54,381 nt of DNA from Clostridia bacterium (lineage in GTDB: Bacteria; Bacillota; Clostridia; Christensenellales; Borkfalkiaceae): contig JAFTKT010000037.1 in NCBI GenBank assembly GCA_017453145.1, positions 1 to 54,381 of the forward strand, written 5' to 3'. This document shows, in pieces, positions 48,658 through 54,381 of the stretch; within the stretch, counting starts at the first letter, position 1, and every line of letters starts with the position of its first letter. The notes under the pieces were generated by a model, which saw nothing but the letters and a program-made list of their open reading frames with translations, was not told the origin of the DNA and searched no databases. The position numbers and the translations under genes were made by a program.

Positions 48658-49938
48658 TTAAGCGTTTTCGCTTTCTTCTTCAAAAAATTCTTCCGTCTTT
48701 CTCGAACGGATTTTAAGCACCTTTTGCTTGGTCGCCTTGACGATTTTAATTTCCAAATACCCGTAGCGGATTACTTCCCCGATAGGAGGAATGCCGCCGT
48801 AATTTTCCGTCGCCCAGCCGCCGACCGTGTTGGACTCGAAATTCTCGTCCTCTTCTTCCATTTCATAGAGAGAGAAATATTCGTTGAGCGGGCATTTTCC
48901 GTCCACCCAGTATTCCTCTTCGTCGATTTTACCGAACAGCACTTCCTCTTCGTCGTGCTCATCCCAAATTTCTCCGACGAGCTCTTCCAAAATGTCTTCC
49001 AACGTTACGATACCGACAAGTCCGCCGTATTCGTCGGAAACCGCCGCCAAATGGATTTTACTTTTTTGGAGCTGTTTCAAAAGCGCGGAAATACGGGTGT
49101 ATTCGGTCGTAAAGACGATATTTAGCAACAGCTTCCTGATGTCCGTTTCGCCGTTTAAGTAGCCCTCGAAAAACTCGCGTTGATGCACGAGCCCGACAAC
49201 GTGGTCAATCGTTTCTTCATACACAGGCAAGCGCGAATAGCCCGTTTTGTGGAACACTTCGCGGATTTCGTCCATCGTATGCTCGGTGCTAACTGCCGCC
49301 ACGTCCACACGCGGCACTAATATATCTTCCACCTTCAAATCGTCGAATTCGAGCGCGGAGCGCACGAGCTCCGATTCGTCCTCTTTGAGCGTTCCGTCTT
49401 CCTCCGCCTCGTCTACGAGCGAAAGGAGCTCTTCGTCGGTTACACCCACCTCTTTTTTAAGCTTGAACACTTTTTTCAGTAGCGTTTTATAACCGTCGAA
49501 CACTTTACATACGGGCACTAATATCCAGTAGAAAAGCTGCATCAAGGGGTAGAAAAAGAAACAGAATTTTTCGGGATACACGCTCGCCAAATATTTGGGC
49601 GTGATTTCGCCGAACAAAAGCACGACGACCGTCAAAACTGCGGTCGATACCGTCGTTGCGAGGTTCGGGTCGTGGGTAATCAACTGTCCGAACAAGACCG
49701 TGCCGAGCGCAGACGCCGTGATGTTCACGATATTGTTTCCGACGAGGATAGCCGTAACCAGCTTGTCGTAGTTTTCGTCGGCAAACGAAGCGACGGCTTT
49801 CGCGTGCTTTTTGCCGAGTGAAATCATACTTTTCAGTTTAATTTTATTCGCGCAGGAATACGCCGTTTCCGTGCCCGAAAAAAAGCCTGATAACAACACA
49901 AGTATCGCAATAACGATAGATAGGGGTAGGGGTTCCAT
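48658..49938 (-). CDS. hemolysin-family/CNNM (DUF21)-CBS-CorC_HlyC domain membrane protein
   Basis: 426 aa. The N-terminal DUF21 TM region contains GEITPK. A tandem CBS pair follows, then a CorC/HlyC-type C-terminal domain. Confidence 0.85.
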
Positions 49939-49999
49939 AAGATATTTTTGAATATCCTCCTGTAATAAAAAATAATTTGAGGTTTTGCCCTCATATCTT

Positions 50000-50029
50000 A
50001 TTATAATACATTTTTCCTGCGTTTGTCAA
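50000..50029 (-). promoter_or_regulatory. sigmaA-type promoter upstream of the CNNM/CorC-type gene
   Basis: On the minus strand: TTGACA (50029-50024), an 18-nt spacer, then TATAAT (50005-50000). About 60 nt lies between it and the start, with an AGGAGG RBS. Confidence 0.6.
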
Positions 50030-50085
50030 CACGAATGAAAAGCTATTTGCACTTTTTTCTGTTTTTTCTTAATTTTTTCACAGAA

Positions 50086-50112
50086 AAGCGCGCCGCTTTC
50101 ATCGGCGCGCTT
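50086..50112 (-). terminator. rho-independent terminator at the end of the peptide ABC transporter operon
   Basis: A 10-bp stem, aagcgcgccg pairing with cggcgcgctt. It overlaps the stop codon and is followed on the minus strand by TTTTCTGTG. Confidence 0.65.
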
Positions 50113-51154
50113 ATTTTCTATTCTCTCCGTATTTCCAAGCAATCTCCCGTTTTTCCTCCGCTGTCTTTTCGGCAAAATGACAGGAAACGAAATGCCCCTT
50201 TTCCACCTCGACAAGCGGGGCAGGTACGCGTTTACATATCTCTTGCGCCATAAAACAGCGGGTATGAAATTTACAGCCCGACGGCGGAGACACGGGGCTT
50301 GGGATATTGCCGCGCAGGATAATCCCCTCTTTTTCCTGCCTTTCGCCTATTTTTGGCGCGGCGGAAATCAGCGCGAGCGTGTAGGGATGACGCGGCTCGG
50401 AAAACACGCGCTTTGCCTCGCCCCGCTCGACGATATTCCCCAAGTACATCACGGCAAGGGAATCGGACACGTGCCGCACGACGGACAAGTCGTGGGATAT
50501 GAATAAATACGTCAAATTCTCCTTTTCTTTCAGCTCGGATAAAAGATTGAGGATTTGCGATTGCACGGAGGCGTCGAGCGCGGATACGCACTCGTCGCAG
50601 ACGACGAACTTGGGCTTGACGGCAAGCGCGCGGGCTATCCCCACCCTTTGGCGCTGTCCGCCCGAAAACTGATGCGGATAACGGTGCAGCGTTTCCTTTT
50701 GCAGTCCGCACTTTTGCAAAATTTCTTGCACGTATTCGCGCATTTGTCGACTGCCCTTTTTATAATAGCCGTGCGTTGCCACCCCCTCTTCGATAATCTG
50801 CCCCACCGTCATCTTGGGATTTAGCGAGGAATAGGGGTCTTGGAACACAATCTGTAAATCACTTCGTAGTCTACGCATTTCCTCTTTTTTCAGTTTCGTC
50901 AAATCAATTTCTTTTTCGTCCGTGCGATAAATCACCTGTCCCGCCGTAGGCTTATAAAGCCCTAACAGGGTTTTGCCGAGCGTGGATTTCCCCGAGCCGC
51001 TCTCCCCCACCACCGAAAAGGTTTCACCCGCCTTAATCTCTAAATCAATATTCTCGTTCGCACGCAAATATCTGCGTTTTTTGAGCAGTCCGCCCGAAAC
51101 GGGAAAATACTTTTTAAGTCCTTTGACGGACAACAAGCTCGGCGTGTCGTTCAC
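50111..51154 (-). CDS. oligopeptide/dipeptide ABC transporter ATP-binding protein (OppF/DppF-like)
   Basis: 347 aa. It contains Walker A GESGSGKST, signature FSGGQRQR and Walker B VCDECVSALD, plus a C-terminal Cys-rich oligopeptide-transporter extension. The GTG at 51154 is preceded by AAGGAGG. The gene overlaps the upstream gene by 41 nt. Confidence 0.9.
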   Translation of the reverse strand: MNDTPSLLSVKGLKKYFPVSGGLLKKRRYLRANENIDLEIKAGETFSVVGESGSGKSTLGKTLLGLYKPTAGQVIYRTDEKEIDLTKLKKEEMRRLRSDLQIVFQDPYSSLNPKMTVGQIIEEGVATHGYYKKGSRQMREYVQEILQKCGLQKETLHRYPHQFSGGQRQRVGIARALAVKPKFVVCDECVSALDASVQSQILNLLSELKEKENLTYLFISHDLSVVRHVSDSLAVMYLGNIVERGEAKRVFSEPRHPYTLALISAAPKIGERQEKEGIILRGNIPSPVSPPSGCKFHTRCFMAQEICKRVPAPLVEVEKGHFVSCHFAEKTAEEKREIAWKYGENRK

Positions 51155-52142
51155 TTTTTCGCTCCTCCTTACTCGGATAAAAACAACGTATTTTTCGCCC
51201 GTTTTTCATGGTGAAAAGAGGCGGTTCTTCCCGCACGCACCTCTCTGTGCAATAACGGCAACGCGTGGAAAATTTACAGCCTTTGGGCAAATCGTAGAGC
51301 GGCGGCACGTGCCCTTCCACCGTTTCCAGCCTTCCGCCTCTGCCCGTCGGAATAGAACGGAGTAACGCCTCCGTATACGGATGCAAATAACGGGATTTGG
51401 AAAACAGTTGCGCCTTTTCTGCCAGCTCCACCACCTGACCGCAATAGAGCACGGCAACCTCGTCCGCCATTTCATGCACCACACCCAAATCGTGCGTAAT
51501 AAACAAAATCGCCGTGCCGCGTTCCCGCTGTAAATCTTTCATCAACCGCAAAATTTGCGCCTGTATGGTAACGTCGAGCGCGGTCGTCGGCTCGTCGGCA
51601 ATCAAGAGTTTGGGGCGGCAGGCAAGCGACATGGCAATCATCACCCTTTGCCGCATTCCCCCCGAAAGCCTGTGCGGAAAATCTTTGACAATGCGTTCAG
51701 GGCTCGGAATTTGCACTGCTTTGAGCATATTTTCCGCCTCGATAAGCGCCTCTTTTTTGGACATGTTCCTGTGAATACGGAAAGGTTCGGACAACTGTTT
51801 GCCGATAGACAGCACGGGGTTGAGCGCGGTCATAGGTTCTTGAAAGACGACGGAAATACGGTTGCCGCGTATTTTACGCATTTCCTCCGCCGACGTTTTC
51901 ACAAGGTCAACGGGCTTGCCCGCCTCCTCCTCGAACAGGATTTCGCCGCCTGCAATACGCCCGTTTTCGTCCAACAGCCGCAAGATACTCATTGCCGAAA
52001 CGCTTTTTCCCGAACCGCTTTCGCCCACGAGCGCGAGCGTTTTTCCTGCGTGCACACAAAAGCTTACGTCGTCTACCGCGCGCAAGTTGCCCCGCCGCGT
52101 TTCAAACTCGACTTGTAGCCCTTTCACCTCTAATAGCGGCAT
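51114..52142 (-). CDS. oligopeptide/dipeptide ABC transporter ATP-binding protein (OppD/DppD-like)
   Basis: 342 aa. It contains Walker A GESGSGKS, signature LSGGMRQR and Walker B LIADEPTTALD. Confidence 0.9.
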   Translation of the reverse strand: MPLLEVKGLQVEFETRRGNLRAVDDVSFCVHAGKTLALVGESGSGKSVSAMSILRLLDENGRIAGGEILFEEEAGKPVDLVKTSAEEMRKIRGNRISVVFQEPMTALNPVLSIGKQLSEPFRIHRNMSKKEALIEAENMLKAVQIPSPERIVKDFPHRLSGGMRQRVMIAMSLACRPKLLIADEPTTALDVTIQAQILRLMKDLQRERGTAILFITHDLGVVHEMADEVAVLYCGQVVELAEKAQLFSKSRYLHPYTEALLRSIPTGRGGRLETVEGHVPPLYDLPKGCKFSTRCRYCTERCVREEPPLFTMKNGRKIRCFYPSKEERKSERHAELVVRQRT

Positions 52143-52183: not shown

Positions 52184-54052
52184 TCATCGCTTTGCGCTTG
52201 ATTTCGGGTCGAGCGCGTCGCGCAGGGCATCGCCGACGACGTTGATACAAATGGTGGCAAGCGATAGAAAGAGCGCGGGGAATAGCCATTGCCACCAATA
52301 GTTTTGAATGACGATACTGTTATTGCTACCGCTCAACATATTCCCCCACGTCGGTTGCGGCTGTTGCACGCCGAACCCTAAATAGGAAAGGGAGGACTCC
52401 GTCAAAAGACACCCCGCAAAATCGAGCGTCATGCTCACAAGCACGACGGAAACGATGTTCGGGAGCACGTGCCGAAAGGCGATGGCGATTTCCCGCACGC
52501 CCATAGCCCGCGCTGCTTGCGTGTAATCCTTTTCCCGTTCGGCGAGCACTTGCGCGCGTATCATTCGCGCAAGCCCCGTCCAAGACAGCGCGCCTAAAAT
52601 CAGCATAATGATAAATATCCGCATCGTTTCTCCGATATTGTAATATTTAATAATCTGCGACAACAGCATAGCGAACGGCAAAAAGGGAATGGAAGAAAAG
52701 ATTTCGGTAATCCGCATCAAAAGCACGTCGGCAAAGCCACCGAAATACCCTGCCGCACAACCGACTAAAATGGCAATCGCGGAAGAAACGAGCACCGCCA
52801 CGCCGCCGATGGTCAACGTCATTTTTCCGCCGTGTACAATCCGCGTGAACACGTCCCGTCCCCGTCCGTCCGTGCCCATAATAGACCCTTTCAGCCCCAC
52901 GCTTTGCACGAGCCTGCCCTCTTTGTCCACCGCATACGTTTGTAGCGCGCCCGCAAACGCGCGCGCCGTGTTCCCGTCTTGTACAAGACGGCATTGTCCG
53001 TAGGCGTCGTGCCCCCACGCATAGACGTTTCCCAAATCCGTTACGCCCACAAAATGCCGCGTGCCGCCGTCTATCGACACGAATTTTTCGCCTGCTCGGA
53101 GCTTGGGCAACTGATTTTCGCCGTTTTCAAAAACGCCCGAAACGACCACCTCACCGCTTTGCAACAGCACCGCCACGCACTTGTTCGTCGCGGCGAGCTG
53201 AACGGCGTTTTGGGCTACCGTGTATTCGTTGAGCGGTATATTCACCTCGCCGTTTGCCGTCGTTACCGACGAAAAAACTCTCTGCGTACCCGTCGTAATT
53301 TCGCCGTTTTCGAGCAAGACGACAGCGGCGGAGTTGGTAAACGCGACCTGTTTCACGCCCGAAAGAAAGGACAGTTCGGCAAGGTTCTTCACGACGTTGG
53401 TATTCCCCCACAAATACGCCTCGCCCGTCCCGAGCACGAGCGCGGACGTCTGATAACCGCAAACGAGCGAGGAAACGCTTTCAGGCGCAATCCCCTCGCG
53501 GAAAATTTCAGGGGTCGGGAGCGCGCCGAGCACGCTTTCAAAGCCGTATTGTCCGCAACTTTTATCCCCCCAACCGACGAGCTTGCCCGATTTGGTTACG
53601 GCAAGAATATGGTCCTTGCCCGCCGCGACATGCGTCGCGCCGTAGTCCTTAACTTCGCTTGGGAGCTCTTTCATATCAACGCCGCTCAATCGGTCTTTGG
53701 CATTCCCCCAAACGAACACCTCGCCCGCACCCGACAAGCCGACGGTAAACCCCGCAAACCCGTCGATTTCCGCCACGTCCTCTTTCAACGCGCGCGGCAG
53801 AGAACGCATGCCGTAGTTGGGTGCGACGTTTTGTTGCAACGGGTCGGTGTAGTTGACGTCCATAGGCAAGAACGCAGGCGCGATAAACACGAACAAAAAC
53901 AGGGACAGGAGCAAGACAAGCGCGACGATTGCGGGTTTTTTGGAGAAAAACGCTTTGAAAAGTAGCCTTGACGGGCTTTCAATCTCTTCCCCCGCCGCAA
54001 GCTCGGGCAAATCCTTTCTGCCCCAAACCATACGTTTTAACCACCTAATCAT
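52184..54052 (-). CDS. OppC/DppC-type ABC permease carrying a large RCC1-like beta-propeller insertion in the first external loop
   Basis: 622 aa. TM1 is AIVALVLLLSLFLFVFIAPAF, followed by about 320 aa with seven RCC1-like units. The canonical segment MGTDGRGRDVFTRIVHGG comes next, then the BPD_transp_1 core (..LSWTGLARMIRAQVL..) and the C-terminal DALRDALDP. Confidence 0.8.
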   Translation of the reverse strand: MIRWLKRMVWGRKDLPELAAGEEIESPSRLLFKAFFSKKPAIVALVLLLSLFLFVFIAPAFLPMDVNYTDPLQQNVAPNYGMRSLPRALKEDVAEIDGFAGFTVGLSGAGEVFVWGNAKDRLSGVDMKELPSEVKDYGATHVAAGKDHILAVTKSGKLVGWGDKSCGQYGFESVLGALPTPEIFREGIAPESVSSLVCGYQTSALVLGTGEAYLWGNTNVVKNLAELSFLSGVKQVAFTNSAAVVLLENGEITTGTQRVFSSVTTANGEVNIPLNEYTVAQNAVQLAATNKCVAVLLQSGEVVVSGVFENGENQLPKLRAGEKFVSIDGGTRHFVGVTDLGNVYAWGHDAYGQCRLVQDGNTARAFAGALQTYAVDKEGRLVQSVGLKGSIMGTDGRGRDVFTRIVHGGKMTLTIGGVAVLVSSAIAILVGCAAGYFGGFADVLLMRITEIFSSIPFLPFAMLLSQIIKYYNIGETMRIFIIMLILGALSWTGLARMIRAQVLAEREKDYTQAARAMGVREIAIAFRHVLPNIVSVVLVSMTLDFAGCLLTESSLSYLGFGVQQPQPTWGNMLSGSNNSIVIQNYWWQWLFPALFLSLATICINVVGDALRDALDPKSSAKR

Positions 54053-54381
54053 TCCCGTCCTCCTACCCGCACGCGCGGGTCTACGATTCCATAGGCGAAA
54101 TCGGCGAGCAGATTTCCCGCAAGCGCCAGCACGATATAAAACATCTGCATGGCGAGCGCGACCTCGTTATCGCTAGACGTGAGCGCGTCGAAATACACCT
54201 TGCCGAGCCCGTTAATCCCGAACACGTTTTCTATCATAATCGACCCCGAAAACAGGCTCGTAAGCCAACCGACGAGCAACGGCACGATAGGGAGCAACGC
54301 ATTACGCCAAGCATGCGAGCGCACGACAAGCCGTTCGGACAAGCCTTTTGCGCGCGCCGTGCGGATACAGTCCAAGTGCAA
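54049..54381 (-). CDS. OppB/DppB-type ABC permease, C-terminal 110 codons (continues beyond window edge)
   Basis: It contains ...DCIRTARAKGLSERLVV..HAWRNALLPIV... and ends GNLLADFAYGIVDPRVR, a typical OppB C-terminus. An ATGA overlap joins it to the downstream permease start. Confidence 0.85.
   Translation of the reverse strand: MHLDCIRTARAKGLSERLVVRSHAWRNALLPIVPLLVGWLTSLFSGSIMIENVFGINGLGKVYFDALTSSDNEVALAMQMFYIVLALAGNLLADFAYGIVDPRVRVGGRE

Follow-up and report, generated by a model that had tools for sequence, protein, structure and literature searches.

What does a large beta-propeller do on the outer face of a peptide-type ATP-binding cassette (ABC) permease? This question is raised by the gene oppC in a stretch of 54,381 nucleotides (the window) from a Clostridia bacterium of the Borkfalkiaceae (assembly GCA_017453145.1, contig JAFTKT010000037.1). 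The contact of type I ABC importers with the exterior is generally attributed almost entirely to soluble or lipid-anchored binding proteins; among folded domains inside loops of the membrane subunits, only the P2 loop of MalF has, to our knowledge, been studied well. An earlier reading made from the letters alone (the sequence-only reading) had described a seven-unit RCC1-like propeller within the first extracytoplasmic loop of an OppC-type permease and had suggested that it acts as a ligand-, cell-wall- or protein-docking module. The analysis presented here indicates that the 622-amino-acid (aa) open reading frame (ORF) is almost certainly a genuine OppC-family subunit of a type I Opp/Dpp-type importer, which carries the propeller in its extracytoplasmic loop between transmembrane helices 1 and 2 (TM1–TM2). 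As for its role, we tentatively propose that the propeller docks or retains the binding protein OppA of its own system.

Architecture of the OppC subunit and its insert

The gene and its parts are as follows:

52184..54052, minus strand: oppC, 622-aa permease with inserted propeller (continuous ORF, Pfam domain order)
53819..53977, minus strand: OppC_N segment, aa 26-78 (PF12911, 30.6 bits, cut-off 23.9)
53867..53932, minus strand: TM1, aa 41-62 (hydropathy peak 2.94; helix 39-61 in the AlphaFold2 model)
52889..53818, minus strand: inserted domain, aa 79-388, predicted to be an extracytoplasmic seven-bladed RCC1/BLIP-II-type beta-propeller plus short linkers (RCC1_2, AlphaFold2, Foldseek)
52187..52888, minus strand: canonical OppC core, aa 389-622, with the GTDxxGRD segment, TM2-TM6 and the EAA-type coupling loop QAARAMGVREIAIAFRHVLP

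The continuous frame and its coupling to the oppB-like gene, both part of the sequence-only reading, were borne out, whereby the ATG start of oppC overlaps the stop of the upstream oppB-like gene as ATGA and is preceded by AGGAGG 6 nucleotides 5' of the start. The order of Pfam domains in OppC is OppC_N, RCC1_2/WD40_RLD and BPD_transp_1 (PF00528, aa 427-617, 112.5 bits), and the motif QAARAMG-x9-HVLP of the EAA-type coupling loop is readable in the sequence. Over aa 389-618 the core aligns to residues 81-301 of Escherichia coli OppC (8z21_B; E-value 1.9e-48), and in a Foldseek search the membrane part matched 8z21_B, 8z1v_B, and 8j5q_C. The solved chains that were compared, namely OppC (8z21_B) and DppC (8z1v_B) from E. 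coli as well as OppC Rv1282c (8j5q_C) and DppC (8wd9_C) from Mycobacterium tuberculosis, have 287-302 aa and align only to aa 368/389-620 of the 622-aa protein. Therefore, about 310 residues (aa 79-388) are extra. They separate the OppC_N segment from the conserved GTDxxGRD segment, two elements with essentially nothing between them in the solved chains. Thus, the insertion that had been claimed stands, whereas its size had been put somewhat too high, at about 320 aa.

The next transmembrane segment after TM1 was found by hydropathy at about aa 410-436, and the N-terminus is rich in lysine and arginine (nine within the first 40 aa). In structures of E. coli Dpp the TM1–TM2 region is periplasmic (PMC12136057). 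Taken together, the position of TM1, the K/R-rich N-terminus and the published Dpp topology place the insert outside the cell, in agreement with its earlier assignment to the first extracytoplasmic loop; this outward topology rests on homology and charge bias. The best NCBIfam match of the whole protein is Opp4C with 286.5 bits, under its cut-off of 350, and all other named equivalog models (OppC, DppC, NikC and others) likewise scored below their cut-offs. Since no named equivalog was reached, the protein was placed in the superfamily only and no substrate was assigned.

The insert passes the gathering score of the Pfam model RCC1_2, which it matches in three stretches (72.6 bits, cut-off 22). 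The WD40_RLD model matches aa 91-354 with 101 bits and so stays under its cut-off (150); with the classical RCC1 model PF00415, OppC gave no significant match. Matches of the insert in phmmer were HERC2, RPGR, UVR8, and RCC1. An AlphaFold2 model of OppC as a single chain, built with an alignment of 62 orthologs, had a mean predicted local distance difference test (pLDDT) value of 76.8, with about 85-95 over aa 80-390, and contained seven blades, most of them with three long strands. Each of the seven RCC1 units listed in the sequence-only reading coincides one for one with a blade of this model. Residue conservation in the following list was scored over 82 orthologs:

53672..53779, minus strand: blade 1, aa 92-127 GFTVGLSGAGEVFVWGN, strands 93-98, 102-107, 112-116; G105, W115, and G116 at least 95% conserved
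53516..53641, minus strand: blade 2, aa 138-179 VAAGKDHILAVTKSGKLVGWGDKSCGQYG, strands 139-144, 148-153, 158-162; best RCC1_2 stretch (aa 140-168); conserved A144, G145, D147, H148, W161, G162, and Q168
53360..53479, minus strand: blade 3, aa 192-231 CGYQTSALVLGTGEAYLWGN, strands 193-198, 202-207, 212-217; conserved Q201, G210, W215, G216, and N217
53240..53359, minus strand: blade 4, aa 232-271 FTNSAAVVLLENGEI, strands 233-238, 243-247, plus short strands 263-270; degenerate and variable, with low conservation
53132..53209, minus strand: blade 5, aa 282-307 ATNKCVAVLLQSGEVVVSG, strands 283-288, 292-297, 302-306; variable, G306 being the only residue at least 95% conserved
53009..53086, minus strand: blade 6, aa 323-348 GGTRHFVGVTDLGNVYAWGHDAYGQC, strands 324-329, 333-338, 343-347; conserved G330, H333, G341, G347, and Q353
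52895..52966, minus strand: blade 7, aa 363-386 GALQTYAVDKEGRLV, strands 364-367, 372-375, 381-385; conserved Q371, Y373, and G386

A Foldseek search of the insert against the PDB returned the RCC1-like domains (RLDs) of UVR8, RPGR, and HERC2 as well as RCC1 with E-values of 1e-14 to 1e-10, and with a probability of 1.00 that extended to BLIP-II. The best size-matched hit was the 268-aa secreted BLIP-II (3qi0), with a target-normalised template modelling score of 0.70-0.78 and a root mean square deviation of about 4.3 A. Both the profile match and the predicted fold assign the insert to the RCC1_2/BLIP-II propeller family. Neither guanine-nucleotide exchange nor another known activity of the RCC1 family is expected of an extracytoplasmic bacterial propeller.

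Distribution, origin and selection of the fusion

The sequence-only reading had asked how widely OppC homologs of such length are distributed, and they turned out to be widespread. A search that spanned 5.8 billion proteins gave 2805 matches among long proteins; the best 120 of these (593-674 aa, 65-100% identity) all have the same architecture and, where named, are labelled only "ABC transporter permease subunit". In a scan with one genome per species, relatives were found in at least 587 genomes, and the best 80 of them (38-78% identity) are all fused. Assemblies with fused relatives include Candidatus Scatosoma, Faecousia, Oscillospiraceae, Acetatifactor, Lachnospiraceae, and Ruminococcus, and the fusion is also present in the isolates Hungatella effluvii DSM 24995, Butyrivibrio sp. 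AE2015, Anaeromicropila herbilytica TB5, Bianquea renquensis NSJ-32, and Falcatimonas sp. MSJ-15. An even sample of the class had the propeller in 12 of 301 genomes (about 4%) and 11 of 178 genera, in a frame of 609-684 aa. None of the two same-family and none of the nine same-order genomes of this sample had the fusion, so that the distribution is patchy. When the insert alone was used as the query, 31,938 matches were obtained, most of which are giant multi-RCC1 proteins; the 50%-identity clusters P0135, P0137, P0150, P0151, P0172, P0223, and P0195 (34-43% identity) are OppC fusions, too. The source genome contains no other RCC1 protein.

A joining of a secreted RCC1 gene to an OppC gene by misassembly or frameshift could be suspected from the fragmented source assembly (135 contigs) and from the database proteins P0302, P0363, and P0372 of the family, which do appear chimeric, but this explanation has a practically negligible probability and was ruled out by the 120 full-length homologs, by the presence of the same fusion in hundreds of independent genomes, among them isolates and complete genomes, and by gut, bovine and faecal metagenome contigs from four studies that cross both insert junctions without indels; moreover, the insert interrupts one gene, as OppC_N and TM1 precede it and the remainder of OppC follows. 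The concern of the sequence-only reading that the assembly had fused two genes is thereby settled in favor of a true fusion.

The membrane domain was used to trace the origin of the fusion. Its identity to the membrane domain of the window's OppC is 50-79% in fused proteins and at most 41% in unfused paralogs of the same genomes. When a maximum likelihood tree was built from the membrane domain alone, 12 fused proteins, which represent 10 families, grouped as one clade against 15 unfused ones (ultrafast bootstrap 100; Shimodaira–Hasegawa-like approximate likelihood ratio 99). This tree indicates that the propeller fusion arose once and that the fused OppCs constitute a clade of their own across many families of Clostridia. 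A search for an unfused sister with the membrane domain as the query returned matches that were nearly all fragments of fused proteins. P0302, P0363, and P0372 seemed to be unfused; their C-terminal halves are identical to fused proteins and their N-termini unrelated, so they are probably chimeric and were not used.

Two side observations concern single database entries. P0302, P0363, P0372, and P0332 share identical C-terminal membrane-domain halves from GYFGGWVD onward, whereby the N-termini are those of a conventional OppC, unrelated, or a propeller; these proteins probably arose as chimeras when metagenomes were assembled across a conserved stretch, or perhaps by recombination. P0240 (584 aa) consists of OppC_N and an RCC1 propeller followed by three SLH domains, and has no permease core. 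Here, the TM1-plus-propeller module may exist alone as a wall-anchored protein, or P0240 may be a chimeric assembly.

Substitution rates indicate that the propeller is under purifying selection: propeller and membrane domain have ratios of nonsynonymous to synonymous rates (dN/dS) of 0.19 and 0.044, respectively, in comparison with the 90%-identical ortholog L115, and of 0.20 and 0.066 in comparison with the ortholog L008. Averaged across the 82 orthologs, column identity reaches 0.49 in the propeller and 0.78 in the membrane domain. Most propeller positions with a conservation of at least 95% are canonical RCC1 structural residues (glycines, Trp-Gly, His148, His333, Gln168, Gln201, Gln353, and Gln371). 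The conserved blades 1-3 and 6-7 adjoin the two membrane connections, and the distal blades 4-5 vary.

Operon, binding protein and possible roles of the propeller

The oppC gene is part of an operon with the order oppA-oppB-oppC-oppD-oppF, and the same five genes occur in the same order in 73 of 73 complete related loci. The partner genes are:

54049..54381, minus strand: 3' end of oppB, last 110 aa, gene cut by the window end (BPD_transp_1, 2.7e-20)
C67:1121-3430: oppA, 721-aa lipoprotein with lipobox AAGC and SBP_bac_5 at aa 226-564
51114..52142, minus strand: oppD, ATPase of 342 aa (ABC_tran, oligo_HPY)
50111..51154, minus strand: oppF, ATPase of 347 aa (ABC_tran, oligo_HPY in one stretch)

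The gene for the binding protein, which the sequence-only reading had suggested looking for beyond the window, was found on C67, a contig of the same genome that overlaps the window. The last 435 bases of the window (53947..54381) correspond to C67:1-435 with 428 of 435 identical positions, which probably reflects strain heterogeneity that broke the assembly inside oppB. C67 also carries the full oppB, whose 340-aa product aligns end to end with E. coli DppB (8z1v_A), scoop region included, and, adjoining oppA and divergent from it, metY and metA. Two further opp systems of the source genome are both conventional.

An OppA-type lipoprotein with a mature length of 600-750 aa is encoded in all 73 complete loci, and the lipobox cysteine is invariant in 49 OppA orthologs. 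The AlphaFold2 model of one ortholog (L115:2823-4976) folds as one compact protein (pLDDT 90.7; predicted template modelling score 0.88). In the OppA studied here, a well-folded extension of about 200 aa precedes the SBP_bac_5 core. This extra mass differs by lineage, being N-terminal (about 205-260 aa), C-terminal (about 170-186 aa), or, in a third group, absent. When the fold of OppA was searched, the matches were generic cluster-C binding proteins only, with 12-16% identity; they comprise M. tuberculosis OppA, NikA, AppA, and Lactococcus lactis OppA, among others, and span binders of peptides, nickel and metallophores; with such low identity to such varied proteins, no substrate can be named from the fold. 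At the loci L066, L076, and L087, two tandem OppA paralogs are located upstream of the same oppB and propeller oppC. No Rfam riboswitch or T-box match was found upstream of oppA in L001, L005, and L006.

Propellers of the RCC1/BLIP-II type are known to serve as scaffolds that bind other proteins. In the structure of E. coli DppABCDF, DppB and DppC are capped by the binding protein, whose cleft is entered by a scoop motif that the TM1–TM2 region of DppB forms (PMC12136057). Since the insert of OppC lies in the region that matches the DppB scoop, within the partner subunit, the propeller would stand beside the docking site. We propose that it could serve as a protein-binding platform on the outer face, next to the site where the lipoprotein OppA would cap OppB and OppC, and that it may help to capture, orient or retain the large, divergent OppA of its own system through the transport cycle. 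It would thus complement the scoop motif of OppB, much as the MalF P2 loop holds MalE, and in the window's lineage, which has neither the small single-pass protein nor the OppF insert described below, it would act without these companions. The position of the propeller, the scaffold precedent, the scoop region kept by OppB, the OppA lipoprotein encoded at every complete locus, the membrane-proximal conservation and the co-variation with OppA and OppB make this role quite possible, if short of probable.

The co-variation was observed in a mirror-tree analysis of 73 loci. Distances of the propeller correlate with those of OppA (0.76) and OppB (0.77), compared to 0.36 for OppD and 0.34 for OppF. 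Partial correlations that take the membrane domain and OppD into account amount to 0.43 for OppA, 0.41 for OppB, and 0.01 for OppF. The value for OppA is 0.23 when the membrane domain, OppB, OppD, and OppF are all controlled for, which was reached by none of 300 permutations.

Several points weigh against a docking function. The mirror-tree signal is weak evidence, as external parts may share rate shifts. The extensions of OppA differ by lineage while the propeller is constant, so that a single conserved extra domain of OppA is not the partner; the N-terminal extension of OppA was rejected as a general partner of the propeller for this reason. The scoop region of OppB is canonical, and ordinary docking might suffice alone. 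Furthermore, no distinctive interface patch was found among the at least 95% conserved propeller residues of the 82 orthologs.

It could also be that the propeller is a ligand receptor, which binds cargo, a larger polypeptide or an envelope component and feeds OppA or the pore, or which anchors the importer to the wall. Beta-propellers commonly bind ligands at the top face or in the central channel, the variable blades 4-5 could reflect adaptation to different ligands, and genes for M3/M29 oligopeptidases, which fit a peptide or protein cargo, account for 8 of 126 operon neighbours. The SLH cell-wall-binding domains of the relative P0240 point in the direction of an anchor; however, P0240 is a single case that may be an assembly artefact, and Pfam detected no SLH or other wall-binding motif in the window's OppC. 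Cell-wall binding by this protein finds no support in the evidence here. A dedicated binding protein is always encoded, and in this class of transporters it is the binding proteins that set specificity; nor is there a conserved polar pocket beyond the canonical RCC1 structural residues. Overall, we regard a receptor function as rather unlikely. Less likely still is an autonomous receptor within the translocator, to which a secreted protease or a ligand of protein size or wall origin would bind directly at the importer mouth.

Another conceivable role is that of a sensing or regulatory axis, in which the propeller, an insert of about 180 aa in OppF and a small single-pass protein would together gate transport or signal across the membrane. 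In most other lineages OppF has about 500-580 aa, with an insert of about 155-200 aa (e.g., L017:9881-11515, L022:9570-11192). The insert is located at about position 77-82 of the window's OppF numbering, splits ABC_tran into two stretches, and gives a weak coiled-coil-like Pfam match. Directly after oppF, 60 of 74 loci harbor a small gene (e.g., L017:11525-11716, L073:11785-12003), which encodes a product of 55-120 aa with a charged N-terminus, a ..GGLEKxD..AM..SA.L..P motif and one C-terminal transmembrane helix. The small gene nearly always co-occurs with the OppF insert, as scored over these 74 loci:

OppF insert of at least 150 aa: small gene present in 57 loci, absent in 2
OppF insert of about 100 aa: small gene present in 1 locus, absent in 3
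No OppF insert: small gene present in 2 loci, absent in 9

The 57 loci that combine a full OppF insert, the small gene and the propeller would fit such an axis. In the window's clade (the window, L005-L015, and L061), however, the small gene is missing, and OppF has either no insert (the window, L005-L008, L011-L014, and L061) or one of about 100 aa only (L009, L010, and L015). At the corresponding position of the window (49939..50110) there is no small gene; instead, oppF is followed by a terminator and an unrelated CNNM gene:

50086..50112, minus strand: terminator-like hairpin directly 3' of the oppF stop (10-bp stem, 8 GC pairs, then a T run)
50000..50029, minus strand: sigma-70-like promoter of the next gene (CNNM), 12/12 consensus (TTGACA, 18-nucleotide spacer, TATAAT)
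48658..49938, minus strand: CNNM/CorC-type gene, next after oppF

The hairpin directly after oppF marks the end of the operon. The propeller is still under purifying selection in this clade, and it does not co-vary with OppF. Together, these data make a regulatory axis very unlikely. As the propeller is kept under purifying selection without the OppF insert and the small gene, its role is independent of both, and the window constitutes a natural minimal version, which separates the role of the propeller from the other two additions. None of the neighbouring genes is universal to the loci, CNNM and metY/metA being specific to the window's lineage.

Finally, the propeller might have no specific partner and be a spacer or shield, a bulky and stable part of the outer face that keeps wall or capsule off the docking site or protects the loop from proteases. 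The conservation of mainly fold-determining residues would agree with this, as would a dN/dS of the propeller that is four to five times that of the membrane domain. On the other hand, all seven blades have been kept since the single origin in at least 10 families, the co-variation with OppA and OppB suggests a specific role, and a spacer should show variation in size, whereas the fused proteins keep to about 600-680 aa. We therefore consider a mere spacer just as improbable as a regulatory axis.

Relation to known systems and significance

Apart from the propeller, the system resembles canonical Opp/Dpp importers. OppC has the OppC_N TM1, the GTDxxGRD segment, the six-transmembrane BPD_transp_1 core and the EAA-type coupling loop, although its membrane domain stands in a clade separate from the conventional paralogs. 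OppA, OppB, OppD, and OppF are the usual partners, and the ATPases have the cysteine spacing of the [4Fe-4S] site: the C-termini of OppD and OppF both contain C-x5-C-x6-C-x17-C (CKFSTRC..C..C and CKFHTRC..C..C, respectively), the spacing of the [4Fe-4S] ligands Cys284/290/297/315 of E. coli DppD (PMC12136057).

For the fold itself, BLIP-II from Streptomyces exfoliatus (3qi0) is likewise a compact RCC1-like propeller with seven blades, about 270-310 aa in size, in which most blades have three long strands, and it is likewise extracytoplasmic and from a Gram-positive bacterium. It differs from the insert in being a free secreted protein that binds class A beta-lactamases, is 21% identical, and has no link to a transporter. 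In BLIP-II and CRINKLY4, which are described as RCC1-related propellers, a blade has three strands instead of four, and plant CRINKLY4 carries its RCC1-like propeller as the ectodomain of a membrane protein (PMC4617170). The eukaryotic RCC1, UVR8, RPGR, and HERC2 RLDs share the seven-bladed RCC1 fold, match in sequence with E-values of 1e-18 to 1e-5, and act as scaffolds for protein interactions. Their blades, in contrast, are longer, with 51-68 aa; most of these domains reside in the cytoplasm or nucleus, and none belongs to a transporter.

Among importers, the MalF P2 loop appears to be the nearest functional analogue. In E. coli MalFGK2-MalE, P2 is an immunoglobulin-like domain of about 180 aa between TM3 and TM4, whose binding to MalE was shown experimentally. 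Like the propeller, P2 is a large, folded extracytoplasmic domain that interrupts a membrane-subunit loop in a type I importer; the propeller is, however, unrelated to P2 in sequence, fold and position, and its binding to OppA is inferred only. In OpuA and GlnPQ, substrate-binding domains of the binding-protein fold are fused to a terminus of the importer membrane subunit. They share with the present system an extracytoplasmic domain that is covalently attached to a type I importer membrane subunit in Gram-positive bacteria, whereas the propeller is inserted in a loop, and its importer retains a binding protein with a gene of its own. No paper that connects OppC with RCC1 or with a propeller came up in full-text searches of the literature.

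The window thus presents a 35-kDa propeller in a membrane-subunit loop, in a family that occurs in about 4% of the sampled Clostridia species, many of them from gut or rumen, which should be moderately surprising to a transporter specialist. The cultured carriers make the system open to experiment. If the propeller binds something other than OppA, this would be a new way for importers to recognise cargo, and an autonomous receptor would define a new subclass of type I ABC importers, in which the membrane subunit itself recognises something outside. If it docks OppA, it would represent a second independent solution for holding a binding protein at the translocator.

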